Source: a virus | IMG/VR virus record: IMGVR_UViG_3300025520_000004 | Coordinates: 1-64,000 of that record | Length of the DNA stretch: 64,000 nucleotides | Direction: 5' to 3' (one strand) | Shown here: positions 31,863 to 49,365 of the stretch, one piece after another | How the letters are laid out: every line of letters begins with the position of its first letter | How positions within the stretch are numbered: the first letter of the stretch is position 1 | The notes under the pieces: generated by a model | Database searches by the model: none | What the model saw: the letters and a program-made list of their open reading frames with translations, nothing else | What the model was told of the DNA's origin: nothing | Position numbers and translations under genes: made by a program

Positions 31863-34800
31863 ATGTCAAACTCCGCATCCACTATTATACTGAACTTTAT
31901 TAAAGGAAAAAAAGGATCCGTCGGCCAAAACGTTAAGTATTATAAACGAGAATTAAAAGCTAAAGGTGGTTATCGATATTGGTATTCGAAAGAAGAATAC
32001 GAAAAAGATCATCCGGATAAAGAAACAAGTAAAGAGCTTGGGTTACTAGAAAAGATCGCTGGCTTTTTCAAAACAGATCCTAGCGATGCAAAGAAAGTTC
32101 CAAAAAAGGAATATGAGACTCACTCCATTTCTGAAAAAGGCATTTCATATCCGGAATGGACTTCTCACTTTGCAAAATATTTTGAACGTAAAGCAGAATA
32201 TGATGCAAGATTTAACCAAGAGAAAACGGCAACATCAACTAACGGTAAAATAATAGACAAAAATCAAGAAACTGTTACAAAGATTGCAGAACAAAAATCG
32301 GAATCCAAATCGATTTACAAAACTTCGATATTCCGGACTTTATTTAATTTATACGGAGAAAAAAATGTCATCGAAAGTAGCACCGGAAGAACTTTACCAG
32401 AAAATCAAAGAGAGGAATCTATCACCTCTGATGCAATACACTCCACAGTGGATTTACGAGAGCCTGGCGGGGATTTGCGAAGCAGAAAAGAAACCGATAA
32501 CAATGGACAATCTTCTACTTTACTCGGGGACGCTAAACGTGGATCTGGACATGATGTTCTCGACGGGGAGCGACTAAAGAATTTTTCCTCTCAAGTAAAA
32601 TTCATTTCAACTATGCTCGATGAAAAGGGCATAGATATCGACAAGGATCTTAACAAACCAGGTCACATCGGGCTTACTTATCGCAACCTACTTGAATTTA
32701 TTGATTCAATGCCAAAGGAAACGAAGGCTCAGATTAAAAAAACTTTCTCTCAAATCGATTTTAGAAATGGCGATATCAATCATTACTTGGATTTTCTCGT
32801 GAATGGGATGATTCAATCAATGGGGCTCAATTCAAATGTCCCTCTGTCCAGTGATGACAATGAAGAAAATGAAGTAATCAATCAAAACGCACTATCTGAA
32901 GCAATGATTGGAAATCAAAATGCAAAAAAGGATTCACCATCATTTCAACTCGTACAGGAATCTGTTCCAGAATCAAAAGGTTTCCAGAAAGAAAATAACC
33001 TTTTTGGAATAACTCCTCAAACTGAAAGGAAAATTCTTAATACGAACTTTCAGCCAAAACTTCAAGTATCGGAAGTAAAAACCATTCCTGAATTCGTAAC
33101 GATGGTCAAAGATGCACTTCTAAAAGAAGGACTCGATCAGAAAGCAGAAGAATGGGTGGACCAAGCATACAAAAGCGATGCAAAATCATTGAATGATTTG
33201 CTAAATAAGGCATATCGATTTGTTCAAATCAGTTCCGAAGATTCTAACAAGATCAGGAAAGGCTTAAAATCGATTCCTCACCAATCTAACTTGGAAACTG
33301 CTGCACAAAATGTTGAGACAATCAAAGAGAAGTTTTCCCAAAAAAAACAATTTGAAATCAATGCGAAATGCAAAGAAATTCTAGCATCGACTCCACCAAG
33401 TCAAATCACAGAAGAACAAAAAGAAATACTCCGGTTATATGAAGGTTCAGGTGGGCAGTCAACCAATGATGATGCCGAATCAAATCGGGGTATGTTGTAT
33501 CAGTTTTTTACACCAAGGAAAATGATTTCTAAAGTTCAGGATATCATGGCCAGATATCTAAAGCCGGGAGACTCAGGTTTAGAACCTAGTGCCGGTATTG
33601 GGCGTTTCGCTGAAGGTGAAGGCTCAAAATACAATTGGGATATGCTCGAATACAATCCTGATGACAATACAGCCTATCAAATCGCGCGTATCCTTCATCC
33701 CGAGGCCAATGTTTCGGACAAAGCGTTCGAGACTTTATTTGTGGATTCAAAAAATAGATCCGTAGGTGAAAACTATAAAGGGAAGAAATACAATTTTATC
33801 TCTGGGAACCCTCCTTACGGAGAGATGTCAGGAAAATTCAAAGCCATCGAAGGTAAAGGATGGAATCGTTATGAACACTATTTCATAAATCGTGGCCTTG
33901 ATACTCTTGAAGAAGGTGGGACAATGTTCTATGTGGTTCCATCCACTTTCTTGCAAGCAGGTGAAACAGCATGGAAGAAAAAGATCTTCGGTAAAGCAGA
34001 ACTTCTCGAAGCTTACCGAATGCCAGAAGGATCCTTCAGCAATACACAAATTGGAGTCGATGTAATAGTCCTTAGAAAGAATACTACAGGGACCCAGGAT
34101 AATGCCAACGCTTTCAACGGTAAGTATTTTGAGCAAAATCCAGAACATGTTTTTGGAGAAACTTTGGAAAGAACTAACAGATTTGGAAGGCCGGAAAACT
34201 ACGTTAAAGGTAAAGCCGATGCTTTCTATGAAATGAACCTCCCTGCTCCAAAAGAAATGTCTCAGGCGCAGAAGGATGCCATCTCTCTTGGCCTCATGGG
34301 CAATGAAAACGCCAAGGGGAAACGAAAAATAGAAATTGCGGAAGCAACAAAAAAGATCAATAAAACGGCCACAAAGAAAGAAGAAATCAAGAACACCATT
34401 GCAGAGAAGAAAGATCCTACAAAGAAAATTGATACTTACACGCAGGAAGAATTTAACACAAAATTCAATAAGAAGTTCACAGATAAGGATCTAGAACTTG
34501 TTCGAAACACTTCCCCTACTGGAATTATAGATGAAAAAATTCCATTCGATTCGGAAAGCATGGCTGTCCTTCCTGGTGGTGCAAGAACTCCTCTTTATCT
34601 TTATAAAGCTGGAAATATCAAACAGAAATTAATTGAACTCGAAAATTCAAAAGATGAATTGGTCTCGAAGTATGGTGAGGAACAATTTGAACGTCAAAGA
34701 AAACTCCTAATCTCGAAAGTTCCACCTAAGATCAATATCGAAGACATTACGCTAACGCCTATTGAACCGTTTTCGAAAGGAATGGTTTTCGACAATGGTG

Positions 34801-37784
34801 ACGGAAGTGAATCAACTCTGATTCAGAAATTCAAGGATTGGGTTTTAGGACAAAGAGTAGAATTTGGCTACGGGAGAAGGACGCAGGTTCGGTATGAAGG
34901 TGGAATTGACCCAAAACTTTTCAATGGGTACTCGGTAACACGGGAAGACATTATCGATTATGTGGATGGTGAAAGAGTAAGACGAAGCCAAGATTTTTCC
35001 AGTGACTTAAGAAAAGAGGAACGTAAAACCCTCGGTAATAAATACTTCAAAGAGTTTATGGATACAGTACTAACTCCATCTGAAAAAGCAAAAGTCGAAT
35101 TGGAGTGGAATGATAGATATAACGTCAATGCGAACATCGATGGATCTGAAATCCCTGTTCTCCTCGAAGGTATGTCAAAAACCTACAAAGGCGAAATCCA
35201 AGACCCTAGAGATTTGCAAATGGAGTTTGTTGCCAGATACATGGCAAAAGGTGTTGGATGTGCTACACATGAAGTCGGACTTGGAAAAACTTGGTCCGGG
35301 ATCATGTCCACTGTCTCTGCAATGCAGGCAGGCAGAACGAAAAAACCTTTGATCGTTGTCCCTACTTCCGTTCTGGAAAAATGGTACACTGAAGCTAAAG
35401 AAAGATTCCCAAATGTTCCATTCCAAATGGTAGGAACTCCGGAGCTGAATAAACTCACTGCCGATCAAGGTGGCAAGTATACTCCTCCTGAAGGGACAGT
35501 TACAATCATGTCCTATAATGCGTTTGAGACATTCGGATTTTCGGACGAAGTTTATAGCGAACTCACTTCAGATATCAAAGATAAAATAATCGATCCAAAA
35601 TCTTCGGAAGGAAAAAAAGGAAATTCCAAAGCAAGAACGGAAGCTAAAGACCAAGAGAAAGTAGAAGGAAAAATGTCCCTGGCCTTAAAGGGAACTTCCA
35701 ATCAACTTAAATTTGATGAAGCGGGTTTCGATCACCTAACAGTTGATGAAGCACACAATTTTAACAATATCTTTACTGACCAAGCATCTGGTCGATTTGG
35801 AAATAATCAAGGTACTAGTGAAGATCCTCTCAATAAAGGGAAAGAGGAAGACGAGAAAGAATCTGTAAACGAATACGCTGGCATTACTGGAGGAACTCCA
35901 TCTAGTAGAGGATGGAAAATGTGGCTCGCGTCTCAATACGTCCAAAAGAGAAATAACAACAGAAACGTTCTACTCCTCTCTGCGACTCCATTTACAAATA
36001 ATCCTCTTCAGGTGTATTCATTGCTTTCGATGATTGCGAGGGAAAAATTGCAATCGCTTGGGATAAACTCGGTAAGAGACTTCCTTGGTGCATTCGTAGA
36101 ATCTCAAGCAGAAAACGTCGTAAAAGGCGATGGAACGATTATCCGAAAAAATGTGGTGAGAAGCTGGAAAAATGCACCAGCATTCCAGGATCTCATAGCT
36201 GAATTTTTCGAATTCAAATCTGGCGATAAGAATGGAGTCAAAAGGCCAAAGCTAAAACTAAAGGCTGTCACTATCCCACTGTCCGAAGAACAAATTCAAA
36301 TTCGAGACCAATTGGAATCAATGTACGATGCTAGAGATAAGGATGGAAGCCCTCTTCCTGGAGCTCCACTTGTATCAATTGGCGTTCAGCAACTAATGGG
36401 CGTTTCACCTGCACTTGTAAAAAAGGGGGAAGGCGCAATTTGGGATACTGAGGAAGCAAAAGATATCAATCCGAATGGATCCAGGGATTTTGTTGAGCGA
36501 TCACCTAAATTGAAATATATTTGTGATTCAATCGCTGGCTTTTATAAAGCGCATCAGGATGCAAAACCTGGTGATCCAATTCCAGGACAAATCTTCTTTT
36601 TGCCGAAAGGTGTAGAGCGAATCAAGGAAGTAAAAGAATACTTGGTGAGCGTTAAAGGCCTCCCACCTGAAGCAGTCGAATTTCTTGATGCTAAATCTAA
36701 ATCTGATCCAGCAAAAGATCCCGAATTAAAAAATCGAGGAATCAAGAGGTTTACGGAAATCACGAATGATTTCAATAACATAAATGGTAAATGTAAAATC
36801 ATAATCGGAACAGATGTGATTAAAGAAGGTGTGGATCTCAATAGGAATACTGCGGTTGCATATAACTCTTGTATTGATTGGAATCCAACTACTGAAGTTC
36901 AAAAACGAGGCCGTCACCATAGACCAGGGAACCTTCTGAATAATGTGATGTGGGTTGATGTTTTAATGGAAGACTCAATCGATTCAAAACTCTATCAAAA
37001 GCAAGGTGAAAAGATTTCTAGGATCAACCAAGTTTTTGAAAAAGATGGTTCGAAGGCAATCGACATTTCCGAGATCAATCCTGACGAAATGAAATTGGAC
37101 TTAATTCGTGACCCTATTAGAAAAGCACGGTTATCTTTATTGGAAGAATCCCAAAAAATCAATGTAAAAGCTCGCGAAGCACAATCACAGGCACTTATGT
37201 ATGCAGGGCTTTCAAACGATTTTGAATCACTTACTGAAGAAATCACTGAACTCGAAGTAGATCTCGTAGATAACGAGAAATACTTAAAAGATCAAATCGA
37301 TGAGCTGAAAGCAAGTGGTATGGAGAAAAAGGATTGGGAAAACAAATGGAACTATAAGTGGGCAAAAGATAAAGTCTCGAAAACTAAAAAAGATATCTTG
37401 GAAGCAAAACGTAAACTTGAGAGAGTTGAAAACCAATTAAAATCCAAAGGTGTAAATGAGAAGACTGCCACAAAAGAGGCAGAAAAATTCCAAGCAATTG
37501 CGGACAAACTTTTTGACCAAGTGAAAGAGTATAAGGATCCAGAAACACAAAAGAAACTGGCCAAAAAATTTGCAGATGAAATTGCAAAGAGGGATAAAGA
37601 TAAAATCAAAACTCCTCTGGACCAAATGGTTCAAGCCCAAGTTGCCGAAGTTCTTGAAATGGTAGGAATCAAACAAATCCAGAAATCTCAATCTTCTAAT
37701 TTGAGTGATAGTAGAATCGTTACCCAAGCAAAGATTACAATTTTCAATTTCTTAAAAGGTAAAAAATATGGCGCGACCGTTTAA
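31863..37784 (+). CDS. Giant DarB-like N6-adenine methyltransferase plus SF2 helicase polyvalent protein
   Basis: MTase motif I LEPSAGIGRF, motif IV GNPPYG. Helicase EVGLGKT, TVDEAHNF, LLSATPF, QKRGRHHRPG. An in-frame ATG at 31845 is an alternative start. Confidence 0.8.
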   Translation: MSNSASTIILNFIKGKKGSVGQNVKYYKRELKAKGGYRYWYSKEEYEKDHPDKETSKELGLLEKIAGFFKTDPSDAKKVPKKEYETHSISEKGISYPEWTSHFAKYFERKAEYDARFNQEKTATSTNGKIIDKNQETVTKIAEQKSESKSIYKTSIFRTLFNLYGEKNVIESSTGRTLPENQREESITSDAIHSTVDLREPGGDLRSRKETDNNGQSSTLLGDAKRGSGHDVLDGERLKNFSSQVKFISTMLDEKGIDIDKDLNKPGHIGLTYRNLLEFIDSMPKETKAQIKKTFSQIDFRNGDINHYLDFLVNGMIQSMGLNSNVPLSSDDNEENEVINQNALSEAMIGNQNAKKDSPSFQLVQESVPESKGFQKENNLFGITPQTERKILNTNFQPKLQVSEVKTIPEFVTMVKDALLKEGLDQKAEEWVDQAYKSDAKSLNDLLNKAYRFVQISSEDSNKIRKGLKSIPHQSNLETAAQNVETIKEKFSQKKQFEINAKCKEILASTPPSQITEEQKEILRLYEGSGGQSTNDDAESNRGMLYQFFTPRKMISKVQDIMARYLKPGDSGLEPSAGIGRFAEGEGSKYNWDMLEYNPDDNTAYQIARILHPEANVSDKAFETLFVDSKNRSVGENYKGKKYNFISGNPPYGEMSGKFKAIEGKGWNRYEHYFINRGLDTLEEGGTMFYVVPSTFLQAGETAWKKKIFGKAELLEAYRMPEGSFSNTQIGVDVIVLRKNTTGTQDNANAFNGKYFEQNPEHVFGETLERTNRFGRPENYVKGKADAFYEMNLPAPKEMSQAQKDAISLGLMGNENAKGKRKIEIAEATKKINKTATKKEEIKNTIAEKKDPTKKIDTYTQEEFNTKFNKKFTDKDLELVRNTSPTGIIDEKIPFDSESMAVLPGGARTPLYLYKAGNIKQKLIELENSKDELVSKYGEEQFERQRKLLISKVPPKINIEDITLTPIEPFSKGMVFDNGDGSESTLIQKFKDWVLGQRVEFGYGRRTQVRYEGGIDPKLFNGYSVTREDIIDYVDGERVRRSQDFSSDLRKEERKTLGNKYFKEFMDTVLTPSEKAKVELEWNDRYNVNANIDGSEIPVLLEGMSKTYKGEIQDPRDLQMEFVARYMAKGVGCATHEVGLGKTWSGIMSTVSAMQAGRTKKPLIVVPTSVLEKWYTEAKERFPNVPFQMVGTPELNKLTADQGGKYTPPEGTVTIMSYNAFETFGFSDEVYSELTSDIKDKIIDPKSSEGKKGNSKARTEAKDQEKVEGKMSLALKGTSNQLKFDEAGFDHLTVDEAHNFNNIFTDQASGRFGNNQGTSEDPLNKGKEEDEKESVNEYAGITGGTPSSRGWKMWLASQYVQKRNNNRNVLLLSATPFTNNPLQVYSLLSMIAREKLQSLGINSVRDFLGAFVESQAENVVKGDGTIIRKNVVRSWKNAPAFQDLIAEFFEFKSGDKNGVKRPKLKLKAVTIPLSEEQIQIRDQLESMYDARDKDGSPLPGAPLVSIGVQQLMGVSPALVKKGEGAIWDTEEAKDINPNGSRDFVERSPKLKYICDSIAGFYKAHQDAKPGDPIPGQIFFLPKGVERIKEVKEYLVSVKGLPPEAVEFLDAKSKSDPAKDPELKNRGIKRFTEITNDFNNINGKCKIIIGTDVIKEGVDLNRNTAVAYNSCIDWNPTTEVQKRGRHHRPGNLLNNVMWVDVLMEDSIDSKLYQKQGEKISRINQVFEKDGSKAIDISEINPDEMKLDLIRDPIRKARLSLLEESQKINVKAREAQSQALMYAGLSNDFESLTEEITELEVDLVDNEKYLKDQIDELKASGMEKKDWENKWNYKWAKDKVSKTKKDILEAKRKLERVENQLKSKGVNEKTATKEAEKFQAIADKLFDQVKEYKDPETQKKLAKKFADEIAKRDKDKIKTPLDQMVQAQVAEVLEMVGIKQIQKSQSSNLSDSRIVTQAKITIFNFLKGKKYGATV

Positions 37785-38718
37785 AGGTTTTCTATTCCAA
37801 AATCCCGACGAAAATGCAAACAGGCACCTTTTGGAAAGGCTATATGCTACAGAAACCCCAGGTGAAATCGATCCATCGATTCCTAAGACCGGTGGGTGGG
37901 GAGCAATTGTAACTCCCGATGAAATACGATATTCTTTGATGTCGGGTAACGGTCGATTGGTGACGGTTGATGGATCATATATCACAGACGAAAATTTACA
38001 AGGATTCGTAGATCAGGTTACACTTGCGATTTCTGAGGAGTTGGAGCACGAAATCTATCCGACAATCTATAGGCATAGACCAAAAGGGAACCTTCCAAGG
38101 TTAATCGAGCCACATGCAAAGTGGTATGATGCTCACGATTATCAGAATTCCGATCTTGGTAATAATTTCTTTGTAGAATTGCGAAAAAAACCACTTCAAA
38201 GACTAATTACTTGGCAGTTCGTTAATCCAATTGGCCGGGACATGAACAATGAACCGACAACCACAATCGTTGATTTCCAAAAGAGAGCGAGAATAGTATA
38301 TGACCAAGGAATTTTACGTTCTATCGGGATTCTTGGATCTAATGTCTCCTTTTCTGGTAACGCAGCGCTTCGATCGCAAAGAGTTTTTCAAGGGATGAGC
38401 CCAACGAAAATTCCAACTACTCACTATATTGATTTTATCTCTGGATATGATTCTGCGTATCGAGTTCCAGCGGAATTAAGAGAGGTTATTGGTCTTATAA
38501 CAGCCATTAAAGTAATGTCGATATACGGAGATGGACGCGCTGCCGCCGTTGCAAGTTTTTCGGTTGGGGTAGGTGTTCTACATGAATCTGTCAGCACAAC
38601 TCAGTCTGCGACTAGCTCGATGTACGGAGCCCGAATCTTAGAATTGACTAACTATCTCAAGGCATGGTATGAAAAAAACATGAGTCGATACAGGTCCATG
38701 AGAGTCGCAATACTTTAG
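37768..38718 (+). CDS. Hypothetical virion-module protein
   Basis: Overlaps the end of the giant gene by 17 nt. Confidence 0.5.
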   Translation: MARPFKGFLFQNPDENANRHLLERLYATETPGEIDPSIPKTGGWGAIVTPDEIRYSLMSGNGRLVTVDGSYITDENLQGFVDQVTLAISEELEHEIYPTIYRHRPKGNLPRLIEPHAKWYDAHDYQNSDLGNNFFVELRKKPLQRLITWQFVNPIGRDMNNEPTTTIVDFQKRARIVYDQGILRSIGILGSNVSFSGNAALRSQRVFQGMSPTKIPTTHYIDFISGYDSAYRVPAELREVIGLITAIKVMSIYGDGRAAAVASFSVGVGVLHESVSTTQSATSSMYGARILELTNYLKAWYEKNMSRYRSMRVAIL

Positions 38719-38799
38719 TTATTGCAGTTGGATACCTAAATCTCACACTGGGATTTAGGAACGGACAAGGCTTTGGACTACAAGGAAACTGAATAGTTT

Positions 38800-38960: not shown

Positions 38961-38982
38961 TTTTAAGATAAGGATCCGGAAC

Positions 38983-39751: not shown

Positions 39752-39771
39752 TCAAGCCTTTCATTTTTTTC

Positions 39772-39841: not shown

Positions 39842-40630
39842 ATGTTAGCAAATATAGATCAGAAAATCAACCAAGCTCAAGGAGATGCTAGTAAAGAACT
39901 AGTTGTCACCTCTATCGAGAAGTCCTCTTTGCCGGTCAAAATTGGATCTAAACCTTTCTATGTTCGAGAAAGTGATACAGGTAGAAAGTTTTATTGGAAC
40001 GGCCTCAAGTTTGTCGACCTAACAAATGATCCTGGTATTCGTGCATGTAATACGTTGCGAGTCGCGGCTAATGTCGCTGATGCGGAAACCGTTGTAATTG
40101 GTGCAAGAACATATGAATTTGATCGTGCTGCTGACGGAGTTGTGTCTGGGAACATAGCTGTAAAAGGTCATGCGGATGATACACCTGGGAATGCAATTGC
40201 TTCACTTGTTGATGCTATTAATTCAGATCAAATTTCTGAAGTTACGGCCATTAAAATTTCTGCCAATGAAATGTTTGTATACCACAAAGTACCTGGTAAC
40301 AAGACTACTCCCACTACAGAAACTCTCTTGGGAGTAAATAACGGATGGGCCGCTGCAACATTACTCAATGGACGTGAGCCAGGAAGTCAGGCATATTCAG
40401 TGATCCGGCGCGTTCCTACTGCGGTTGAAGTCGCTTTAGGTGTAATGCATTTCTATTTCGATTTCCCTCCTACATTGGCCGACATTCGAGTCGTTGTAAC
40501 AGCGACTCCAGGTGTTCCTTTAGCCTGGGACGGTGCAGTAACAATTACTGGGAATAGACTCACGATTGACAACTCTGGCTCAGTCGATTGGTCAACTACG
40601 AACACAATCGTTCTTACTGTGGCAAAATAA
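39842..40630 (+). CDS. Virion structural protein candidate
   Basis: Has its own late element plus an SD. Ala/Val/Thr/Gly-rich beta-type sequence. Alternative start at 39830. Confidence 0.5.
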   Translation: MLANIDQKINQAQGDASKELVVTSIEKSSLPVKIGSKPFYVRESDTGRKFYWNGLKFVDLTNDPGIRACNTLRVAANVADAETVVIGARTYEFDRAADGVVSGNIAVKGHADDTPGNAIASLVDAINSDQISEVTAIKISANEMFVYHKVPGNKTTPTTETLLGVNNGWAAATLLNGREPGSQAYSVIRRVPTAVEVALGVMHFYFDFPPTLADIRVVVTATPGVPLAWDGAVTITGNRLTIDNSGSVDWSTTNTIVLTVAK

Positions 40631-40631
40631 C

Positions 40632-40937: not shown

Positions 40938-41351
40938 ATGGCTGCAATCCAAATTAAATCACAAGTCGCATTGGTAGAGGATTCGGGTGTACAAGTAGTA
41001 TTGCCAGAAATGATAACTCAAAACGAATTCACCAAAGGTGCGCTTAGTGAGGCTATCATTATAGAAAATTCAGTTTCCGATACCATGGTTACTCCAATTG
41101 CAGTCTCGCTCGAATCTTATCCAAATACTACATGCATTGTATTGAAAGCAGAGTATGCCGAAAATGACTTCCCAAACGGAATCAAGGCAGGTGATAGAGC
41201 AAAATTCCAATTCAGATTCGATTCTGGGAATTGGTTTGAAGCCTATTCAGTGATTCTCGAAGGATACAAACCAAATTCTCCAGAGATACAAATTCGAGCA
41301 CAAGGTACTGGAAAAATTCTAGTAAAGAGGACTGTCAGTGCAACAGAATAA
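40938..41351 (+). CDS. Hypothetical head-module protein
   Basis: Abuts the previous stop. Confidence 0.45.
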   Translation: MAAIQIKSQVALVEDSGVQVVLPEMITQNEFTKGALSEAIIIENSVSDTMVTPIAVSLESYPNTTCIVLKAEYAENDFPNGIKAGDRAKFQFRFDSGNWFEAYSVILEGYKPNSPEIQIRAQGTGKILVKRTVSATE

Positions 41352-42171
41352 ACCGTATTGTTTTTTAAAATCTGCAACCGTTGAACAAGCCGAAATTGAA
41401 GGTAAGTTCATAAACATGCTTCTTAAAGTATCGACAGAGAAGCGTGACAAAGAAGGTGATATGTTTCTGAAAGGAGCATGGACCCACAAAGAGGATGTTG
41501 AATACTTCCAAAAGAAAGGTGTGATCGATTGGAATCACTTATCTCAAACATCTAAATTCGCAAAGTCAAATAATCCCAAAGAAAAAGCTGATAATGAATT
41601 GGTTAGCGCAGAAGCAATCCTTGGTGTTCCAAGTGGGCGAGGCCTGTTTCTTGGTGATGATGGATTATATTGCGAAGCTCGAATTAATGCAGAAAATAAA
41701 TACATCAAACCATTTGTTCCTTTACTCAAAGCTGGATTTTCTGGATTGGAAGTTTCTGCAGCTGGTGGAGCATACCGTCCAAGTCCAGAAACAATTTCCA
41801 AATATGGAGAAAAGACTTGGGATCGTGCAAGGCTAACTCATATAGCCATTTGCCCTCCAGGTGAGGCAATCAATGATGAAACCCAAGCATTACTCTTAAA
41901 GTCTCATCTCGCATCTGAACTCGGATGGAAGGAAGAAGATGAGCCAGTACCAACCAAGTTTAATATTGATCCAGTCGGTTCAGTGTTAGAATTCATTTCT
42001 TCTTCTCCTGATTACAATCAGTGGGTTGCAAACAGACTAGTTGGTGCAATCGATTCTGGTCTTCTCCCAAAAGATTACCAAGCGATTTTTGAATTTGTTA
42101 AAAATCATGGTCTATCGGTAGAGAAGGCAAAACAATACGCAATTAAACTACTACAGGCTATGGAGGTCTGA
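41338..42171 (+). CDS. Prohead protease (HK97/S78-like)
   Basis: IEGKFINMLLKVSTEKRDKEGDMFLKGAW, IDWNHL and GLEVSAAGG resemble S78 family blocks. Followed by a scaffold-like gene and the capsid gene. Confidence 0.55.
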   Translation: MQQNKPYCFLKSATVEQAEIEGKFINMLLKVSTEKRDKEGDMFLKGAWTHKEDVEYFQKKGVIDWNHLSQTSKFAKSNNPKEKADNELVSAEAILGVPSGRGLFLGDDGLYCEARINAENKYIKPFVPLLKAGFSGLEVSAAGGAYRPSPETISKYGEKTWDRARLTHIAICPPGEAINDETQALLLKSHLASELGWKEEDEPVPTKFNIDPVGSVLEFISSSPDYNQWVANRLVGAIDSGLLPKDYQAIFEFVKNHGLSVEKAKQYAIKLLQAMEV

Positions 42172-42172
42172 A

Positions 42173-42904
42173 ATGAATAAGGATTGGCAGAAACAGTTTA
42201 TGGGACTTGTCTCCTCGTTTACCAAATCCAGTACAGGAGCAGAGGATACACCGCCACCTCCTAGTGCTGACGATGGTGGAACAGGAGCTGGTGAAGGTAT
42301 CTCTGATGAATTTTTAGATAAATTGAAGTCAGCGATTGAATCAGGTGAGGTTGCAGTCGAAGAATCGGCTATCAAGGCTTACTGTAAAACGAATGGAATT
42401 TCCGAAGAAGACAGCGCGGAAATTTGGGGAATTATCTCTGAAGGGTTGAGTGATGAAGGTGGTGAAGAACCAGCACCTGGCTCAGATCCAGAAAGTGATA
42501 TCCAGAAAGGTGGGAACAAGGCGATGGACCCAGACTTTGTGGCTTTTGCAAAATCAACAGCAATGGCTGTTAAAAGCGCAGAAACGCATGAAATGGCGAT
42601 CGCTTCCTTAATTGAAGAGAATGCTGTATTCGCAAAAGAAAACCAAGAAATCAAAAAGGAAATCGCATTCTTAAAATCAGAACTCGGGAAAGTATTAAAA
42701 CAACCGGTAGATTCAAAGAAACCGGTTCTTGATACTTCCGGGATCCCTGCACAATATGGAAGAGCTGAAATTATCCAGCTTATTTCCAAAGGTGTCCAGG
42801 ATAAAAAATTAGCTCTCGGTGACTTGCAGACGTTCAAATCGTCCGGACGTCAAACTGAGGCTGTTGTGGAATTTTTAAAAAGTTCATCCAAAGGGGGAAA
42901 CTAA
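42173..42904 (+). CDS. Scaffolding protein candidate
   Basis: Acidic, helical/coiled-coil. Lies between the protease and the capsid gene. Confidence 0.5.
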   Translation: MNKDWQKQFMGLVSSFTKSSTGAEDTPPPPSADDGGTGAGEGISDEFLDKLKSAIESGEVAVEESAIKAYCKTNGISEEDSAEIWGIISEGLSDEGGEEPAPGSDPESDIQKGGNKAMDPDFVAFAKSTAMAVKSAETHEMAIASLIEENAVFAKENQEIKKEIAFLKSELGKVLKQPVDSKKPVLDTSGIPAQYGRAEIIQLISKGVQDKKLALGDLQTFKSSGRQTEAVVEFLKSSSKGGN

Positions 42905-44457
42905 TGAAACTCAACTTAAAATTCACTTTGATTGGTGTTGTTTCAACAATTCTCTTCTGCATTGGCCTCCTCCATCTTGGAGGCACTGAGACTGTTATGC
43001 TCGGGTTATTAACCCCGTCATTCGGTTCGCTAGAAGAAATCAGAAACTTCATGAAGTCATTTAACGCAAATAGCGACGGTATTACCGACGTTACTGCTCT
43101 CACAAATGGTGCTGCAACTACTATGCACAATTTGGACGAAGAGATGGTTCTCTTAGCACAGGATTCAGACGAATATAACTTCTTGAATACTATGTTCTAT
43201 CGAGATACCAAATCGACTCTAAACGTGTTTGGTCAAATTCTCGATTGGGGTGGCAATGGCGATTTCTCATTCGTAGGTGAAGTCGACGACGCAGAATTCA
43301 AAGATGTTTCCATCAAGAGAATCTCAAAAACGGTTTCTTTCCTCGCGGAAGGATATGCAGTATCTAAGGTTTTGGACATCCAAGACACAGGTTCTTATGA
43401 TCCAGAAGCGATCCAAGTTCAAGGTGCGATTAACCGAATTATGCAAACTCTTGCTTATGGTGCATGGTATGCTGAGAAGGCTATCAATCCACTTGAATTC
43501 GATGGTTTTGTAACTGAACTTAAGAATGCTGGCCAAGTTTATGATGCTCGCGGTGGTTTTCCGGAAATTAAAATCATTAAAGAATTGGCTGTGAATATCA
43601 GAACAAACTTCGGTATGGTAAACGAATTTTGGCTCCATGATGGCGTTAAAAACGTATTGGATACATACTACACTGAATCCAAAGAATTTTTTACCCAACC
43701 GAATAACGGATCTATGGCAGACATTGGATACAATATCCCAGGTTTAGTTGGTGCTCCACTTAAAGATAAGAGGCTGGAATTTAAAACTGATCTTTGGATG
43801 AACCGTCATCTAGTTGAATTGCCAACTTATAGAGATGCCAATGGTAACAAAGTATCTGGGAAAACAAATTCTCTAGCTCCTGATGCACCGAGCATTGCGT
43901 TAGCAGTATCCGGTGGCCCAGTTTTAGGTTCTGAGTGGCTTCCTAAAGATACCAAAAATTCTTCTGGTGTTGATGCTGGTGTAAGTTATCGAGTGGTTGC
44001 TTGTAACAAATCTGGACGTTCTGCTCCAAGTGCGATTGTAACTTCTGGTGTAATGAGCGCGGGTAAATCAATCACAGTAACAATTACACCTGCGGGAAGT
44101 GGGTATGCGGCTACTTATTTCCAAATTTTCCGTGAGACATCACCTGGTTCTGGAGACTTCCGATTGACCGAAAGAATCGTGAAATCTGCAAACCCTACCA
44201 CCGTGTATGTTGATCTCAATGCTTGGCGTCCAGGTTGCACAGAAGGTGTTGTGGGTGATTTCAATTCAAGATCTGCTCTCGACCAGAAGCGAACCTACCA
44301 AATGTTGCGTATGTTGCCTTTGTTACAAACCAAGTTCTCACCGAACGCAGTTTATCAAAGAAAACTAGCGGGTATGGTTGAATGGTATGGTGGTCTTGCG
44401 GTTTTACAACCAAAGAGATTCTATTTAATTAAGAACTTACCTACTACACTCGTATAG
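42904..44457 (+). CDS. Major capsid protein candidate with C-terminal Ig/FN3-like region
   Basis: Canonical protease-scaffold-capsid order. Weak hairpin after the gene at 44473-44492. Start uncertain. Confidence 0.55.
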   Translation: MKLNLKFTLIGVVSTILFCIGLLHLGGTETVMLGLLTPSFGSLEEIRNFMKSFNANSDGITDVTALTNGAATTMHNLDEEMVLLAQDSDEYNFLNTMFYRDTKSTLNVFGQILDWGGNGDFSFVGEVDDAEFKDVSIKRISKTVSFLAEGYAVSKVLDIQDTGSYDPEAIQVQGAINRIMQTLAYGAWYAEKAINPLEFDGFVTELKNAGQVYDARGGFPEIKIIKELAVNIRTNFGMVNEFWLHDGVKNVLDTYYTESKEFFTQPNNGSMADIGYNIPGLVGAPLKDKRLEFKTDLWMNRHLVELPTYRDANGNKVSGKTNSLAPDAPSIALAVSGGPVLGSEWLPKDTKNSSGVDAGVSYRVVACNKSGRSAPSAIVTSGVMSAGKSITVTITPAGSGYAATYFQIFRETSPGSGDFRLTERIVKSANPTTVYVDLNAWRPGCTEGVVGDFNSRSALDQKRTYQMLRMLPLLQTKFSPNAVYQRKLAGMVEWYGGLAVLQPKRFYLIKNLPTTLV

Positions 44458-44505
44458 GTTTGAAATTATAAGGCAGGACTAAACATCCTGTCTTTGCAAT
44501 ATAAA

Positions 44506-46713
44506 ATGCTCACTGCAAATAGCCAAGGTAATACAGACATAGGAAATTTGACTGGGGGAGCAGCGCTTCAGAAAGATCCTTTTTCCAAATCTATCCGAGG
44601 CAAAAACTTCAAAGAATATATAAAATCTCTCAAAGGAAAATTTTTCCAAAAATCTCGTCTTAAAATTTCAAAAGAAGATTATAATTCCAATCCTACTCAT
44701 TCTCAAAAACAAGCAGGGAACTATAAAAAAGCTCACGTCAAAGTTCAAGGATTCGATATTTCCATCGAAAATCCCGAGGGAACGTATAGATGTGGAAAAG
44801 ATTCCAATGGCAAAGAATGGAAAAATAAAATGGTTCACCATTATGGCTATTTCAAAAGGACTCTTGGAAAAGACGGTGATCATATCGATTGCTTTATTGG
44901 TCCAAATATAAAATCGGAACTAGTTTTCATAATCAATCAAATCAAGCCTTCATCCGGAATTTTCGATGAGCATAAAGTCATGCTTGGATTCGATTCTTTC
45001 GAAGAAGCAAAAGAAGGATATTTAGCAAACTATTCTCCTGGTTGGAAAGGATTAGGCGATATCAAGTCCATGACTGTGGATCAATTTAGAACATGGTTAG
45101 AGAAAGCAGATACCACCAAGAAAGCAAAAGCAGTGATTATTAAATCCTCATTAAAAAACTTCTTCGTAAAAAGTAATAAAGCCCAAGTAGGTGAAACTCG
45201 TACTTGGGCCGATGGGAAGCAGCATCGTAAAACCGACAATGGATGGGTAGAAGTATCCGGTAACAAGCAGACCAGTAATCCTTCTCAAGACTCAAATGAT
45301 AAACGAAAATCAAATGTAGATTCAAATTCTAGTCAAAATAAAACTTACGAACAGAAAGCTGTTGAGGCACTTGAAAGATGGAAGGAGTTTGAGCAACTTG
45401 CTAAAGAGAGAAACAAACAGAGAATTTCTAAAATGAAGCCAGAGAAGAGAAACGAGGCATTTGATATTAAAAATGCCGAACCAGGTGATATCGTTAGGAT
45501 TGAGAGACCAATAGATGGGCGCGTAAATCGAGGCCACCTAGCGAAAGTTTTGGATAAGATTGATGGTCATCTAAAAGTTATGCTTCCTTCAGGAAGTATT
45601 TTTCTGTTTTTGGCCGCAGATCTAGCTTTTGCAAAATCAAGTAAAAAGCATTTCATTGATAAATTGTTCCCCTTCATTAAAGGAAAACTCGCTCAGGTTG
45701 GGGAAATTAGAACATGGTCTGATGGGAATAAATATCGGAAAGAATCAAATGGATGGCGAATGATTGGTGAGAGCGAGAACAAGGCTGCACATCAAACAAC
45801 TTCAAAAAAAGCAGGTATGTCCAAAGAAGAACATTCGCAAGCTACTGAAAAAGCCATGCAAAATGGGATTAAAATTCCTGTAAAAGTTTTACGAGAATAC
45901 CCCGCCCTTCTTGAAAAATATCCAAAATATAAGGAAAGAGTGAGTGCTATTGATTCTCTTTCTAAAGGGATGAAGAAAGGAGAGAAAATTGGTAATCAGT
46001 TGGAGAAGACCGCAAATACATTAAAACAAGGGAAAATTCCCGATGCAATCAAATCCATCGATTTAATCAAAACCAATCAGAATAGTTCAGAAAAAACCGG
46101 TGAAGCCAAAATCCAAGCTTCTGAAAAATTGAATAACCTAATGTCATCCAAAGGTCAACTTAAAGGGACAGTTAAAAAAATAAAATCGGAAGCCAAACTT
46201 AAACTCACTTCGAAAGAACAGAAAAGAGTGGATGACTTAGAGAACAAAAATCTTGCAACAGAAGCGATTATGGTTTATGCAAACAAACTAAAAAACAAAA
46301 AGTATTTGTTTGCACTAAAGGAAAACAGGAAAAAACATCTTAAACTCGGCCATCTTAGTAGCGAACTCAAGAAAGAAAGAGATGATATTTACCATGAAGT
46401 AATGCGAGAGTTCAAATCCGATTCGGAACGACTTGGGAAAATCAATAAACCCGAAACCTTAACAGATGCACAAATTTTTGAAAATGTAAGGGATGCTTCC
46501 CTTCTCGATTCTAAGAAGCTACAGAAAAACGTTTCTCTAATTGATGTTCAAATAGCGATGGCAGAGAAGCATGGAAACGCCAATGCACTTCGAAAATTAG
46601 AAGTCAAGGGCACGATTTACCGAGTCGCTCAACTCTTACAAAGTGATAAATCTATGACTAAGGATGACATTGCTTCTCTTGTAAGGCATGGCGCGGAATT
46701 ACCTGGCCAATGA
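44506..46713 (+). CDS. Large virion-module protein with pyrophosphatase-like N-terminal domain
   Basis: AGNYKKAHVKVQGFDISIENPEGTYRCGKD...HHYGYFKRTLGKDGDHIDCFIGPN resembles a domain often auto-annotated as inorganic pyrophosphatase in phage polyvalent proteins (from memory). Two internal copies of the shared module. The track start is TTG 44494. Confidence 0.45.
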   Translation: MLTANSQGNTDIGNLTGGAALQKDPFSKSIRGKNFKEYIKSLKGKFFQKSRLKISKEDYNSNPTHSQKQAGNYKKAHVKVQGFDISIENPEGTYRCGKDSNGKEWKNKMVHHYGYFKRTLGKDGDHIDCFIGPNIKSELVFIINQIKPSSGIFDEHKVMLGFDSFEEAKEGYLANYSPGWKGLGDIKSMTVDQFRTWLEKADTTKKAKAVIIKSSLKNFFVKSNKAQVGETRTWADGKQHRKTDNGWVEVSGNKQTSNPSQDSNDKRKSNVDSNSSQNKTYEQKAVEALERWKEFEQLAKERNKQRISKMKPEKRNEAFDIKNAEPGDIVRIERPIDGRVNRGHLAKVLDKIDGHLKVMLPSGSIFLFLAADLAFAKSSKKHFIDKLFPFIKGKLAQVGEIRTWSDGNKYRKESNGWRMIGESENKAAHQTTSKKAGMSKEEHSQATEKAMQNGIKIPVKVLREYPALLEKYPKYKERVSAIDSLSKGMKKGEKIGNQLEKTANTLKQGKIPDAIKSIDLIKTNQNSSEKTGEAKIQASEKLNNLMSSKGQLKGTVKKIKSEAKLKLTSKEQKRVDDLENKNLATEAIMVYANKLKNKKYLFALKENRKKHLKLGHLSSELKKERDDIYHEVMREFKSDSERLGKINKPETLTDAQIFENVRDASLLDSKKLQKNVSLIDVQIAMAEKHGNANALRKLEVKGTIYRVAQLLQSDKSMTKDDIASLVRHGAELPGQ

Positions 46714-46740
46714 CCATAGCGAACTTTTTCCGCTATGGTC
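46712..46740 (+). terminator. Perfect 10-bp stem hairpin GACCATAGCG-N9-CGCTATGGTC
   Basis: Read directly. Overlaps the stop codon of the preceding gene. No clear U-tract. 14 nt upstream of the P5 -35-like hexamer. Confidence 0.45.
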
Positions 46741-46754
46741 TCTCCTGAAAAGAA

Positions 46755-46791
46755 TTGACTTTCATTGGGATCCATTCCTTTGTCCTTCCCC
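46755..46791 (+). promoter_or_regulatory. Late element P5: TTGACT-N19-TTGTCCTTCCCC, then ATG
   Basis: Member of the 7-copy motif. ATG at 46792. Confidence 0.6.
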
Positions 46792-49365
46792 ATGAATCAA
46801 AATCTTGCAATCATATTAAATTTCCTTAAAGCGAGCAAAGGCTCACAGGGAACGAATGTAAAATACTACAAGCGAGAACCAAGAGCGAAAGGTGGTTATC
46901 GTTATTGGTACACAAAAGAAGCGTATGATCGAGATCACAAAAAACAAGAACCGAAAAAGGAAGGCCAGAAAGAGCCTTCTATTTGGAGCAAGGTTGCAAG
47001 TTTTTTCGGAGTCAAGCCGACGGAAATCAATGCAAAGATTGAATCGGAATACAAAGAGAACTTGGATGCAATAACTAAGGAAGTTGGACCCGTCTCAAAA
47101 CAGGATTTCTCCTCTCACCTAGCAGAATATTTAGCAAACAAAACCAAATGGGATACAAAATTTAAGGCAAAAAAAAACGAGACTACAAAAGAAACTGCTG
47201 AACCAAAAGAAGAGATTGGTGACGACATCGATGTCGTCACCAAAGAGAAACAGGAAAAAACTCCAAAGGAAAAGGTCAAAGAGCAGGCAGATAAATTTCA
47301 GGATGGGAAAAAATGGAATCTGAAGCTCATGCAATTCATTGCAAGTAAGTATACTGATTCAAAAGAGAAACATGGGGAAGGATCCTCTCAAGAAATTGTA
47401 AATAATTTGGAGAAACTTGGATTCACCAAAGAGCAAATTTCAGAAGTAGAAAACGCAACAAAATACAAATACCTTTCACAAAGTGGCAAGGAAGTGAGTT
47501 TTTATTATAAACCTACTGAAGATAAATGGATTTGGTCTCAAGGAACGGGAACTGAAAAATTTTATTCCGAAAAAGATCCAAAACAAGTTTTGTCACAGGC
47601 AAAGCTCTCTATTGAAAGTCTCGGAGAGCAAGGTATTTCCAATTGGAGCGAAATCCCAAAATCCAAAAAAGATGAATTGGGTAAATTGCTGGATAGTTTG
47701 AAAAAGAATTCCAGCTTACCTAAATCCCAAACTGATACTAAGGAACTATCCAAATTAGTCAACGAGCAGGACCCGATTGAAGCTAAAATTGCTCAATCCT
47801 GGAATAAAATTGATACCATTCGGAAGGATAAAAGCCTCAGTGAGGATGAGTTTAGGACGGAAATTGAAAAAGCCCGTTCTGAATTAAGATCTGCAATGAA
47901 AGAAAAACAGGTGCGTGATGGTTTCAAAACACTTAGCGATCTAGAGAAAGTCGCATTTGAAGCTTTATACAAGGTAGATGCACCTGACACATTTCCAGTT
48001 GATGCTAAAGGGAACGTAGACAAGAAAGCAATTTCGAATTACGTCAAAGAAAAACAAGCACTCGATCCTGATGCACGTTCCAAAGCAATGAAAGGGAATG
48101 ATAATGCTAAGAAAGATGGTGCAATAAAAGCAATTTCTGAAATTAAAAAAAAAAGCCCTAAGCTAAGATCGCAAGCACTTCGCATTTCTGGAGACAAACA
48201 TGTCTATCGACAATCTGTGTCCGGGAAGACTTCAAATAAATTACAAGAAGTTCCTGCTTCAGATATCTCTACAATTGAGCAATACACTGACGAAAAAAAT
48301 TATAATCGAAAAGTTATTGAAGGAATCAAATCATCAATTCTTGCCAAAGGATTCGATCCTGGTTCTCCAATTAAAGTTGATAGAGATAAAAACGGTCAAA
48401 TGACAGTCGTCGATGGGCATCATCGTTTCACAGCCGTAAAAGAACTTATTTCGGAAGCAAAACTTCCAAAAGATACCCCAATCTATGTAATTGAGGAAAA
48501 ATACAATTCTGAATCTGATCGTTTACTCGCTCAGGTCTCAGCGAACAAAAACAAGCGTGAAGTGGAGCGGTTGGATGATGCAAAAGCCTACGCGAAACTT
48601 ATAGAGCAAGGAAAGTCTGTACAAGAAATTTCAGAAAGAACAGGAGAGTCTACGGAATATGTCAAAGGAACCATTGCACTCAACAATTTAATTCCAGAAC
48701 TTAAAGACCTTCTACGAACCGATGCAAAAAAGAACATCCGTACATCGGATAAAGCAAACGATGGATCCAAAGAGAAAAGGGAATCGATTCCTGAGTCATT
48801 GGCAATCGTTATCGCAAAAAACGGGATCGATGAAGGAGGAAAGCCCTCACCTACTATCCAAAGAAAGGCGTTCTCATGGTACAATCAAAACAAAGGCAAA
48901 GGAATTTCACCTAACCAAGTTAAGTCGTATATTGATAGTCTCAAAGCACAGAATTTTTCTTTCGGGAACGTGGACTCTGCCGGTAGATCTGACGTAGAAC
49001 AGGAGGCTGTGAAATTTGCAGGTGGCGAGGACAATGCGAAGGCAAATTCGGCAGGCTTCGAAAACTTACTAACGGCAATTCAAAAACCTATTCAGAAATT
49101 CCTTGGTGATACAATTACGGATCTCAATGAAGGAAGAGCGAAAGAACTAGCTGCTTCAATAATTGCAACGAAAGGTGAGAGTGCACTGGAAACAGAACTT
49201 GCAAGGCTATCTGATGCACTCAATAATATTGCTGCTTTTAGAGATTCATTGAAAAAGAAATTCGGCGAAATAAAAGCAGATTCCCAAACCCCGGATATGT
49301 TCGCATTCAAAAGCTCGATTGGAACTTTCCTCAATGCTCTGAAAAATAAAAATCAGGTTTGTTAA
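46792..49365 (+). CDS. Large virion-module protein with ParB-like nuclease domain
   Basis: MTVVDGHHRFTAVKEL (ParB/Srx DGHHR core). N-terminal 50 aa homologous to the DarB-like protein. Confidence 0.7.
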   Translation: MNQNLAIILNFLKASKGSQGTNVKYYKREPRAKGGYRYWYTKEAYDRDHKKQEPKKEGQKEPSIWSKVASFFGVKPTEINAKIESEYKENLDAITKEVGPVSKQDFSSHLAEYLANKTKWDTKFKAKKNETTKETAEPKEEIGDDIDVVTKEKQEKTPKEKVKEQADKFQDGKKWNLKLMQFIASKYTDSKEKHGEGSSQEIVNNLEKLGFTKEQISEVENATKYKYLSQSGKEVSFYYKPTEDKWIWSQGTGTEKFYSEKDPKQVLSQAKLSIESLGEQGISNWSEIPKSKKDELGKLLDSLKKNSSLPKSQTDTKELSKLVNEQDPIEAKIAQSWNKIDTIRKDKSLSEDEFRTEIEKARSELRSAMKEKQVRDGFKTLSDLEKVAFEALYKVDAPDTFPVDAKGNVDKKAISNYVKEKQALDPDARSKAMKGNDNAKKDGAIKAISEIKKKSPKLRSQALRISGDKHVYRQSVSGKTSNKLQEVPASDISTIEQYTDEKNYNRKVIEGIKSSILAKGFDPGSPIKVDRDKNGQMTVVDGHHRFTAVKELISEAKLPKDTPIYVIEEKYNSESDRLLAQVSANKNKREVERLDDAKAYAKLIEQGKSVQEISERTGESTEYVKGTIALNNLIPELKDLLRTDAKKNIRTSDKANDGSKEKRESIPESLAIVIAKNGIDEGGKPSPTIQRKAFSWYNQNKGKGISPNQVKSYIDSLKAQNFSFGNVDSAGRSDVEQEAVKFAGGEDNAKANSAGFENLLTAIQKPIQKFLGDTITDLNEGRAKELAASIIATKGESALETELARLSDALNNIAAFRDSLKKKFGEIKADSQTPDMFAFKSSIGTFLNALKNKNQVC

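Follow-up and report, generated by a model that had tools for sequence, protein, structure and literature searches.

We describe here a set of head genes on a 64,000-nucleotide stretch of viral DNA (the window: positions 1 to 64,000 of IMG/VR record IMGVR_UViG_3300025520_000004), and in particular three large proteins encoded among them that resemble one another at their ends. Bases 40000-50000 of the window match Leptospira phage LE1 over their full length with 88.8% nucleotide identity, and judged by this match the window comes from an LE1-like Leptospira phage or plasmid-prophage. Few genetic tools exist for Leptospira, and LE1 is among them. On the plus strand, the genes for the portal, a DarB-like protein, a protease, a scaffold, the major capsid protein (MCP), an InPase protein, a ParB protein, and the tail sheath follow one another in that order (Table 1). 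The DarB-like protein contains a methyltransferase-helicase (MTase-helicase) dyad of the P1 DarB type (Eco57I, E = 2.4e-8; SNF2, E = 9.4e-10; Helicase_C, E = 1.8e-9; phrog_10089, E = 1.9e-33), and all three large proteins carry the domains that a preliminary description of the locus had assigned to them (for the first, Eco57I MTase, SNF2, and Helicase_C together with the PHROG name "DarB-like"). Comparisons within what we call the LE1 group cover seven genomes: the relatives L004-L007 from IMG/VR, whose MCPs are about 70% identical to that of the window, L008 and L009 from Leptospira genomes, and LE1 itself (L001).

The preliminary description had proposed that one module of about 50 amino acids (aa) occurs four times in these proteins, at the N termini of the DarB-like and ParB proteins and twice inside the InPase protein, and that its first part recurs at two C termini. 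The two N termini are indeed homologous (composition-corrected BLASTP, 56/131 identities (43%), E = 1e-30), and the remainders of the two proteins are unrelated save for low-complexity K/E-rich matches. The shared region is much longer than proposed, however: about 131 aa, or about 165-190 aa when a downstream helix is included. We call it the N-module. The two internal copies in the InPase protein (45163-45255 and 45673-45765) also exist and are homologous to each other and to the copies in relatives (domain E values of 1e-22 to 1e-25 with a hidden Markov model (HMM)), but they are not demonstrably the N-module. An HMM of the InPase-type copies finds no match in the DarB-like and ParB N termini (score -0.3 on the DarB N terminus), and hhalign aligns the copies with the N-module profile over 11 columns only (FLKgrKgxqg, probability 10.5%). 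One module in four copies was therefore rejected, as the two comparisons leave only the region of a short motif in common. What is found instead is a short leader that ends in this motif, followed either by the N-module (DarB-like and ParB) or by a different small hairpin (InPase). The C-terminal recurrences are borne out, as FNFLK/GKKYGATV at the end of the DarB-like protein (37749-37781) and ALK/NKNQVC at the end of the ParB protein (49336-49362), where the slash marks the position discussed below as a predicted cut. Because the short motif is the common denominator of all copies, the C-terminal ones included, we reinterpret the shared element as a possible protease site.

Table 1. Genes of the head region of the window, with predicted protease sites and peptide features. 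A slash marks a predicted cut.
Feature	Position	Strand	Remark
Portal	26926-28608	+	head-module gene
Four small head-region genes	between portal and 31863	+	
DarB-like MTase-helicase protein, predicted polyvalent cargo, 1973 aa	31863-37784	+	LE1 gp15; Pfam and PHROG matches
DarB-like leader, aa 1-14, MSNSASTIILNFIK, to predicted site FIK14/G15	31863-31904	+	
DarB-like N-module, aa 1-165: type-1 hairpin NVKYYKRELKAKGGYRYWY (31929-31985), helical bundle, helix SIYKTSIFRTLFNLYG	31863-32357	+	
DarB-like C-terminal predicted sites IQK1941/S and FLK1965/G (8 aa from end)	37677-37760	+	
phrog_772 "tail fiber"-like protein	37768-38718	+	
Predicted prohead protease (HK97/S78-like), 277 aa	41338-42171	+	hhalign against Herelleviridae proteases
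Protease predicted sites CFLK11/S, FAK76/S, LLK188/S	in 41338-42171	+	conserved
Scaffolding-like protein, acidic coiled-coil	42173-42904	+	
Scaffold predicted sites FTK18/S, YCK72/T, FAK127/S, FLK168/S, FLK236/SSSKGGN (end)	in 42173-42904	+	
MCP, phrog_752	42904-44457	+	
MCP predicted maturation site FMK51/S52, then N-arm SFNANSDGITDVTALTNGAAT	43048-43119	+	F49 and K51 invariant in relatives
InPase protein, predicted polyvalent cargo, 735 aa	44506-46713	+	LE1 gp25; Pfam InPase E = 1.3e-55
InPase protein: domains separated by predicted sites K28, K40, K49, K222, K377, K392	44506-46713	+	
Copy of mature MCP N-arm MLTANSQGNTDIGNLTGGAAL, then predicted site PFSK28/S	44506-44592	+	
Predicted site FVK222/S, then type-2 hairpin 1 QVGETRTWADGKQHRKTDNGWVEV	45163-45255	+	
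Predicted sites FAK377/S and FIK392/G, then type-2 hairpin 2 QVGEIRTWSDGNKYRKESNGWRMI	45628-45765	+	
ParB-type protein, predicted polyvalent cargo, 857 aa	46792-49365	+	LE1 gp26; PHROG, Pfam, and TIGR00180 matches
ParB leader, aa 1-13, MNQNLAIILNFLK/A, and N-module	46792-47355	+	
ParB N-module: hairpin (46855-46911), helical bundle to about aa 130, K/E-rich linker, helix WNLKLMQFIASKYT	in 46792-47355	+	
ParB C-terminal predicted sites AFK840/SS and ALK851/N (6 aa from end)	49303-49347	+	
Tail sheath	51188-52972	+	

The motif consists of a hydrophobic residue, any residue, a lysine, and a small residue (hydrophobic-x-K/small, and in the window F-x-K/ followed by S, G, or A). We scanned every open reading frame (ORF) for it and compared the counts of [FY]-x-K-[SGTA] with those in 300 shuffles of each protein. 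Six predicted head-internal proteins together contain 25 matches, with 9.5 expected; all 48 other ORFs together contain 29, with 22.6 expected. Individually, the scaffold has 5 matches (0.40 expected), the protease 3 (0.53), the InPase protein 7 (1.63), and the DarB-like protein 7 (4.15). The motif lies close to protein ends in the scaffold (..EAVVEFLK/SSSKGGN, 7 aa from the C terminus) and in the protease, whose N terminus carries YCFLK/SA. The five sites in the scaffold, the three in the protease, and the one in the MCP are kept in 7/7 genomes of the LE1 group, and the linkers that flank them vary. The terminal site of the DarB-like protein is present in 7/7 sequences that cover the C terminus, which end in ..FLK/GKKYGATV, ..FLK/SKKADSNG, ..FLK/SA, or ..YLK/SAC, and the site upstream of it fits the motif in 4/7. 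The C terminus of P0016, ILK/NSQPK, resembles the end of the ParB protein. A further match, FEFVK/N, close to the protease's C terminus, was dropped, as it is not conserved in relatives.

Two other head-region proteins contain the motif. A 327-aa protein (phrog_3759, 29214-30197) has 4 matches to [FY]-x-K-[SGTA] against 0.66 expected and a conserved site 5 aa from its C terminus (VFRK/GQRVM in the window and IFTK/GRRMM in L006); it is probably a further protease substrate or head-internal protein. The portal has EEFRK54/SS near its N terminus.

With proteins so rich in K and E, the resemblances could in principle be a matter of chance or composition among lysine-rich low-complexity sequences, with no shared function. 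BLAST without composition correction does return inflated long alignments here, and no significant relationship links the N-module to the InPase-type copies, both as this explanation would have it. We nevertheless consider it extremely improbable. The N-terminal homology holds after composition correction, the motif is enriched over shuffled sequences, the sites are kept while their flanks vary, the N-module has 68 distant homologues, and the N-arm copy in the InPase protein, described below, matches the MCP with E = 3e-10. The explanation by chance is refuted by these results.

The position of the motif in the capsid protein provides an anchor to a known mature N terminus. The 277-aa protein encoded upstream of the scaffold gene receives no name from Pfam, PHROGs, or NCBIfam. 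A profile built from it and six relatives, however, matches Herelleviridae proteases annotated as Peptidase_U35 (hhalign probability 95.3%, E = 2.2e-8). Because this match also aligns the catalytic motifs, the His motif IDWNH with INFEH and the Ser motif LEaSaaG with LGFSIEG, we identify the protein as the prohead protease, in agreement with the preliminary description, which had placed one near the three large genes. The window MCP is likewise distantly related to the capsid proteins of the Herelleviridae (22-25% identity, 618 phage records). In a MAFFT alignment, FMK51/S52FNANSDGITD of the window falls on DALK23/S24FTTGYGITPDTQ of Listeria phage LMTA-57 (..DALK/SFTTGYGITPDTQ) and on DVVK24/S25FQTGYGITPDTQ of Staphylococcus Kayvirus. 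The Cps protein of Listeria phage A511 reportedly loses 23 N-terminal residues. In PDB entries 9row, 9rox, and 9roz, the Kayvirus MCP chain comprises 439 aa and starts exactly at S25 of the 463-residue precursor, and the mature MCP in the Kayvirus family therefore begins after K24. The predicted site of the window thus coincides with a maturation position in a homologous capsid protein.

Herelleviridae proteases contain a second copy of the site and of the N-arm that follows it, in the form FMKS-x-TGHGTxPDTQ. Such internal copies of a phage's own MCP site and N-arm are found in the proteases of L010 (4086-4880), L011 (4080-4853; both Herelleviridae), L012 (17669-18541), and also L013, and they read FMKS-WTTGHGTTPDTQVNAGALRRE in the Listeria and Staphylococcus Herelleviridae and DLKK/ALLAPSSTGDLYNTPGGAIT in L012 and L013. 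Such a copy may serve to anchor the protease within the prohead. A separate feature of the MCP lies upstream of its predicted site, at the start of the ORF: a hydrophobic, transmembrane-like stretch, FTLIGVVSTILFCIGLLHLG (42922-42981, residues ~7-26), the pattern of which is kept in L004-L008, with S14, G21, L22, L23, and G26 invariant in an alignment of the window with L004-L006. A stretch of this kind is unusual in a capsid propeptide.

In other phage lineages, the motif in the leaders changes together with that at the anchor sites. Through the contigs of N-module family members we found lineages in which the head genes are ordered as in the window and the sites have different flavours. Within the LE1 group, the MCP has F-[AM]-K/[ST], the scaffold [FYW]-x-K/[STA], the protease F-x-K/S and L-x-K/S, and the cargo leaders F-x-K/[GAS]. 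In L012, a JGI contig, the MCP has ELAK/ALLAP and the protease EDLKK/ALLAP, and the leaders read DMQK/ARVTKYVKR, DLNK/ARVTKYVKR, and DLNK/AKAVPVG; its scaffold contains 7 matches to [LMFIV]-x-K-A (0.85 expected from shuffles) and F-x-K-S is not enriched. The MCP, scaffold, protease, and leader patterns of L013 are as in L012. In these two contigs, N-module leaders end in DMQK/A, DLNK/A, or SMEK/A, according to a rule [LM]-x-K/A, which the leaders of their type-2 hairpins (DLNK/A, GLEK/A, NLNK/A) obey too. Nine IMG/VR loci have L-x-K/A-L-x-A-P in the MCP and N-module leaders that end in K/A in 15/15 cases, mostly as M-x-K/A; over all relatives with L/M-x-K/A sites in the MCP, K/A ends 21/21 of the N-module cargo leaders read. 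L014 has EFRK/A in the MCP, F-x-K/S in the scaffold and protease, and leaders QFMK/A and VFIK/A. In L015 (Leptospira phage LinZ_10, MCP 32% identical), the MCP has EIKK/S, there are many [LIV]-[LIV]-K/[SG] matches, and the leader is SLILK/GKFLPVG. At P3, the LE1 group and L014 have an aromatic residue and the other two groups an aliphatic one, and P1' is Ala where the MCP has Ala. By this comparison the cargo leaders appear to follow the site rule of their own phage, and four lineages agree. L012 (6368-7426) and L013 (1519-2553 and 13195-13872) also encode proteins that contain or end in a site and a type-2 hairpin, for example ..YVKLNK/AVTVPVKGNKVNWEMIS at a C terminus and ..LEK/AKKAPIGTVNTKTGRKKVAEGKWVPV.

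Because the same motif is found at the MCP maturation position, in the scaffold, and in the protease, and co-varies across lineages, we read it as a protease site. The comparative evidence makes it likely that hydrophobic-x-K/small is where the prohead protease cuts and that the three large proteins are packaged and trimmed substrates. The site would be that of an HK97-type prohead serine protease, with Lys at P1, a small residue at P1', and a hydrophobic residue at P3. The protease would cut the MCP between K51 and S52, dice the scaffold at five places, and trim itself. The DarB-like, InPase, and ParB proteins, with sites at their extreme N and C termini and in every linker between domains, would be built into the procapsid as it assembles and trimmed afterwards. 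The protease would split the InPase protein into its individual domains, either before DNA is packaged or while it is, and the trimmed products would be retained in the head as anti-defence cargo for injection. The preliminary description had offered several roles for the shared element: a tag for head incorporation, for portal or DNA-end association, or for protease trimming. Of these, comparative evidence favours trimming, and head incorporation would follow indirectly, because a substrate of the prohead protease must be inside the prohead. A host Prp-like protease, of the sort said to act on ribosomal protein L27 and on phage 80alpha in Firmicutes, was considered as the responsible enzyme and dropped, since the data are accounted for by a protease of the phage itself whose sites co-vary.

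Several points weigh against this reading. First, the motif is short, and it also matches within the folded MTase-helicase domains (IFGK/A, YVK/G, MPK/G); such matches within folded enzyme domains are probably not cleaved, so that the pattern alone over-predicts. Second, leaders of the same lineage are paralogues, and the instances counted as co-variation are thus not independent of one another. Third, the mature N terminus of the Kayvirus MCP rests on the depositors' chain sequence. Fourth, the fold of the N-module, for which a role is proposed below, has no significant match in the structure libraries searched. Finally, it is hard to see why just 13-14 aa should be trimmed from N termini and 6-8 aa from C termini, unless the removed pieces serve in targeting or tethering. 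Candidates for such peptides are these leaders, these C-terminal tails, and the 28-aa N-arm copy in the InPase protein.

This last point leads to a different explanation, in which the motif is never cut and instead serves as a capsid-targeting peptide or one that binds the shell or scaffold, as an encapsulin cargo-loading peptide or a coat-binding scaffold C terminus does. The motif does lie at the extreme N and C termini of the cargo and at the C terminus of the scaffold, and the leader is predicted to form an amphipathic helix (residues 3-15). Moreover, P1 DarB is targeted to the capsid by its N-terminal 30 aa, and a 10-aa capsid-targeting sequence has been described in T4 (PMC9024508). But the motif also occurs five times inside the scaffold, inside the protease, in linkers between domains, and at the MCP position that is homologous to a known mature N terminus, and a profile of the scaffold C terminus does not match the cargo C termini beyond a 4-6-aa core. 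Further, a peptide can be both a targeting signal and a cleavage substrate, as the capsid-targeting sequence of T4 is, and the true competitor is only the version in which nothing is cleaved. We regard that version as quite improbable. The related idea that the cargo C termini mimic the scaffold C terminus was rejected, as the scaffold C-terminal HMM finds the FLKS core only.

In the InPase protein, trimming may be coupled to a tether. Its N terminus, MLTANSQGNTDIGNLTGGAAL, copies SFNANSDGITDVTALTNGAAT, the MCP segment that stands right behind the predicted cut. When seven N termini of InPase proteins were made into an HMM and run against 754 ORFs from seven genomes, it matched every MCP at residues 52/53-72/73; the match to the window MCP is the one with E = 3e-10 cited above, and in L005 the match has E = 2.5e-11 with 19/22 residues identical. 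The copy stands directly upstream of site K28, which is followed by two more, K40 and K49. This arrangement suggests a tether by mimicry of a capsid subunit: the copy would hold the InPase protein to the shell or scaffold until the protease released it. Two other ideas about the MCP and InPase genes were rejected. A fusion of MCP and InPase by stop-codon readthrough would be in a common frame in the window, but is not in L004 or L005, and the hairpin between the two ORFs is weak. The many synonymous differences in the nucleotide alignment are at odds with a recent gene conversion involving the 5' ends of both genes.

The same sites appear to delimit exchangeable cassettes. In LE1 gp25 (L001, 25878-28535), an HAD-like (HAD/NT5C-like) domain is inserted between ..FFQK/S and ..EFQK/S; L005 (11635-13482) and L006 have an HAD insertion between the equivalent sites, and the window has none. 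The Leptospira protein P0002 is missing the InPase domain between two sites, and the InPase protein of L004 (11533-14466) has gained a Zeta-toxin domain. The L004 ParB protein has gained PBECR3 and an internal site-plus-hairpin. In L006, the DarB orthologue has lost the MTase and half of the helicase and retains the N-module together with the C-terminal tail. Domain gain and loss in the cargo proteins occurs at the predicted sites.

The N-module itself would be the mature N terminus of the cargo, a basic-aromatic beta-hairpin (KYYKR..GGYRYWY) with a helical bundle. Its core reads K-Y-[YIV]-K-R-x-P-x(n)-G-x-G-[YW]-x-Y-[FYW]-Y-T, then ..FFG.., ..EY.., and ..H-L-x-E-Y-x-x-N-K-x-K-W-D, followed by a K/E-rich linker and a helix ..S-h-M-x-x-I-x-x-x-Y-G; this further conserved helix (SIYKTSIFRTLFNLYG in the DarB-like protein, WNLKLMQFIASKYT in ParB) is at about residue 150-190 of a 33-sequence alignment. 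An AlphaFold2 model of the ParB N-module from that alignment has a mean pLDDT (predicted local distance difference test score) of 67.8, with 77-91 in hairpin and bundle, and consists of a leader helix (3-15), a beta-hairpin (27-30/36-39), the bundle (64-132, pLDDT 80-91), a disordered linker, and the final helix. The leader helix in it is amphipathic; the sequence modelled is that of ParB, not of the DarB-like protein. A first model from a 2-sequence alignment was poor (pLDDT 60.7). Foldseek searches of the better model against PDB and BFVD returned nothing significant (best E of 0.8 and 0.6), the sequence profile found nothing among PDB sequences, and no family in Pfam, PHROGs, or NCBIfam corresponds to the N-module.

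The family is narrowly distributed. An exhaustive profile search with the two window N termini of 1.84 billion proteins yielded 68 cluster representatives at E<=1e-3. Members are large proteins (500-2500 aa) of the Eco57I/SNF2, ART-PolyVal, LPD1, and ParB types, and the Pfam matches in 45 scanned members include Eco57I (7), SNF2 (6), Helicase_C (6), DUF5661 (4), ART-PolyVal (3), LPD1 (3), DUF6496 (3), and ParB (2). The N-module stands at the N terminus or at boundaries between domains further inside, and some proteins have it twice. Every genomic context that could be read is a head gene module (L012, L013, L014, L017, L018-L026). None of 50,697 GenBank phage records contains an N-module beyond LE1, and no PLSDB plasmid does. 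In a word-indexed protein search, the 128-aa N terminus found nothing and the InPase middle region only two Leptospira proteins. In the wider family, leaders precede one of three hairpin types, KYxKR, the InPase-like VGxxxxxDGxxxxKxxxGxW, or IINKKGxQQTVYVKP; the third stands upstream of a helical domain in some proteins. By position, the three types seem interchangeable, and homology among them is not demonstrable.

A domain with so basic and aromatic a hairpin might bind nucleic acid, so that the cargo would travel with the genome by holding phage DNA or its end, and the similarity of the leaders would be incidental. Each processed cassette would then begin with a hairpin, as is seen, and there is a weak local likeness to the L24e rRNA-binding hairpin (24 aa, root mean square deviation 1.6-1.9, E 3.7-7, not significant). 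We think this explanation unlikely. No DNA- or RNA-binding family gives a significant match in structure or in sequence, the InPase protein has type-2 hairpins that do not stand out as basic, and the family is rare and confined to the head modules of one capsid lineage. Moreover, the explanation concerns the function of a domain and leaves the motif in the scaffold, MCP, and protease unexplained. The preliminary description had also raised the possibility of a generic nucleic-acid-binding domain widespread in non-virion proteins; what we find is 68 representatives with head modules in every readable context. Because the N-module is restricted to this capsid and protease lineage, an assembly-specific role on the mature protein is argued for rather than generic DNA binding, and for the same reason the N-module most likely holds the cargo in the core of the assembling head.

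That a prohead protease can process packaged proteins is already known, and by analogy the window fits the paradigm of T4, the giant phages, and P1, in which the prohead protease cuts short leaders or propeptides of injected head proteins at a motif shared with the capsid and scaffold proteins. In T4, internal proteins IPI-III and Alt, processed by gp21, likewise have an N-terminal leader that ends at a prohead-protease site common to the capsid protein and scaffold core, and they too are injected, as anti-restriction or host-takeover proteins (in part PMC9024508). T4 gp21, however, cuts after Glu (L/I-x-E/), and the predicted cut in the window is after Lys. Unlike in T4, the window sites are also at C termini and between polyvalent domains, and a large conserved domain would be left at the mature N terminus of the cargo. 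P1 DarB is, as in the window, a large MTase and helicase protein of the anti-restriction type encoded among head genes, and its packaging signal lies within at most 30 N-terminal aa; the P1 authors reported no consensus for the Dar N termini, whereas two of the window cargo proteins share a homologous N terminus, and the P1 MCP is cut at E120/S121 rather than behind a Lys (PMC9024508). In the giant phages SPN3US, phiKZ, and 201phi2-1, a single cleavage motif is common to capsid protein, protease, portal, and the internal proteins that are ejected; propeptides are cut at several sites, and in SPN3US those of head proteins are removed at this motif (PMC10052503). The giant-phage protease resembles T4 gp21 and has a motif with Glu at its end, whereas the window protease is distantly related to the Peptidase_U35-annotated proteases of the Herelleviridae; and giant-phage propeptides are mostly 111-254 aa and N-terminal only, whereas the window has leaders of 13-28 aa and internal and C-terminal sites. 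A weak precedent in the same host genus is Leptospira phage LE4, in whose purified particles a ParB-like nuclease and two other "non-structural" proteins were found by mass spectrometry (PMC6078989).

The domain repertoire of the cargo (InPase, MTase-helicase, and ParB, with PBECR3, Zeta toxin, ART-PolyVal, and LPD1 in relatives) is that of the polyvalent proteins (Iyer, Burroughs, Anand, de Souza and Aravind 2017, PMC5512222), which combine at least two disparate domains in one polypeptide, as do MTase and helicase in the window and, in relatives, InPase with HAD or Zeta toxin and ParB with PBECR3 (L004). That work predicted virion packaging of polyvalent proteins and proposed that built-in zincin-like metallopeptidase domains process them. 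The predicted processing enzyme in the window is, by contrast, the prohead protease: Pfam finds no zincin-like metallopeptidase domain in the three window proteins, and such a domain is present in some N-module relatives, which have LPD1 or HExxH C termini. None of the Pfam families that came out of that study corresponds to the N-module or to the hairpins. Herelleviridae such as Kayvirus and the A511-like phages have an MCP and protease homologous to those of the window, with the MCP cut after Lys before S-F; in the two Herelleviridae loci read, no N-module or polyvalent cargo protein stands beside the MCP. Encapsulin cargo-loading peptides, in which a short terminal peptide directs enzymes into an HK97-fold shell, are comparable by analogy only; they stay uncleaved and bind a defined pocket, whereas in the window any such binding is putative and there is no sequence relationship.

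Against this background, what appears new is the Lys-specific site code in an LE1/Herelleviridae-type system, the site as a boundary of exchangeable polyvalent-protein cassettes, the unannotated header domain, and the copy of the capsid N-arm. A broader generalization, which we offer as possible but hardly yet probable, is that in LE1-like phages, and in a wider group of uncultured phages whose capsids are Herelleviridae-like, an injected anti-defence arsenal is put together from exchangeable, site-bounded cassettes, loaded through the header domain and a cleavable N-arm copy and diced by the maturation protease instead of a built-in metallopeptidase.

If cleavage occurs as predicted, hydrophobic-x-K/small would be a sequence-readable rule for recognizing the head-internal proteins of LE1-like phages and their processing, and mature ends could be assigned to the capsid protein, the scaffold fragments, and the three cargo proteins. 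If the broader generalization also holds, the leader, the N-module, or the N-arm copy could be used as a transferable tag with which to bring foreign proteins into a phage head of the HK97 fold; the N-module would then represent an unannotated domain family specific to packaged cargo, with the capsid N-arm copy as a possible tether. A Lys-cutting protease would, moreover, be invisible to standard tryptic proteomics, which may explain why such processing goes unnoticed.

Two sequence elements near the start codons of these genes may bear on their expression. A short hairpin, CAGGAC-n5-GTCCTG followed by TCTTTGC, lies at 44474-44490 between the MCP stop codon and the start of the InPase gene; it is annotated as a terminator in LE1 and may lower the expression of the cargo genes relative to the MCP. 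In addition, a 17-nucleotide element, YTTGTCMCTTCCC, directly abuts the ATG of five genes on the plus strand: those for the portal (26924-26940), the DarB-like protein (31849-31865), the ParB protein (46778-46794), a small ORF before the sheath (50922-50938), and an ORF with its ATG at 62904 (62890-62906). There are 5 matches in the window and 0 in 100 shuffles. No Shine-Dalgarno sequence was found in the leaders that carry the element, which might be a late promoter whose genes have leaderless starts, or else might act in translation.

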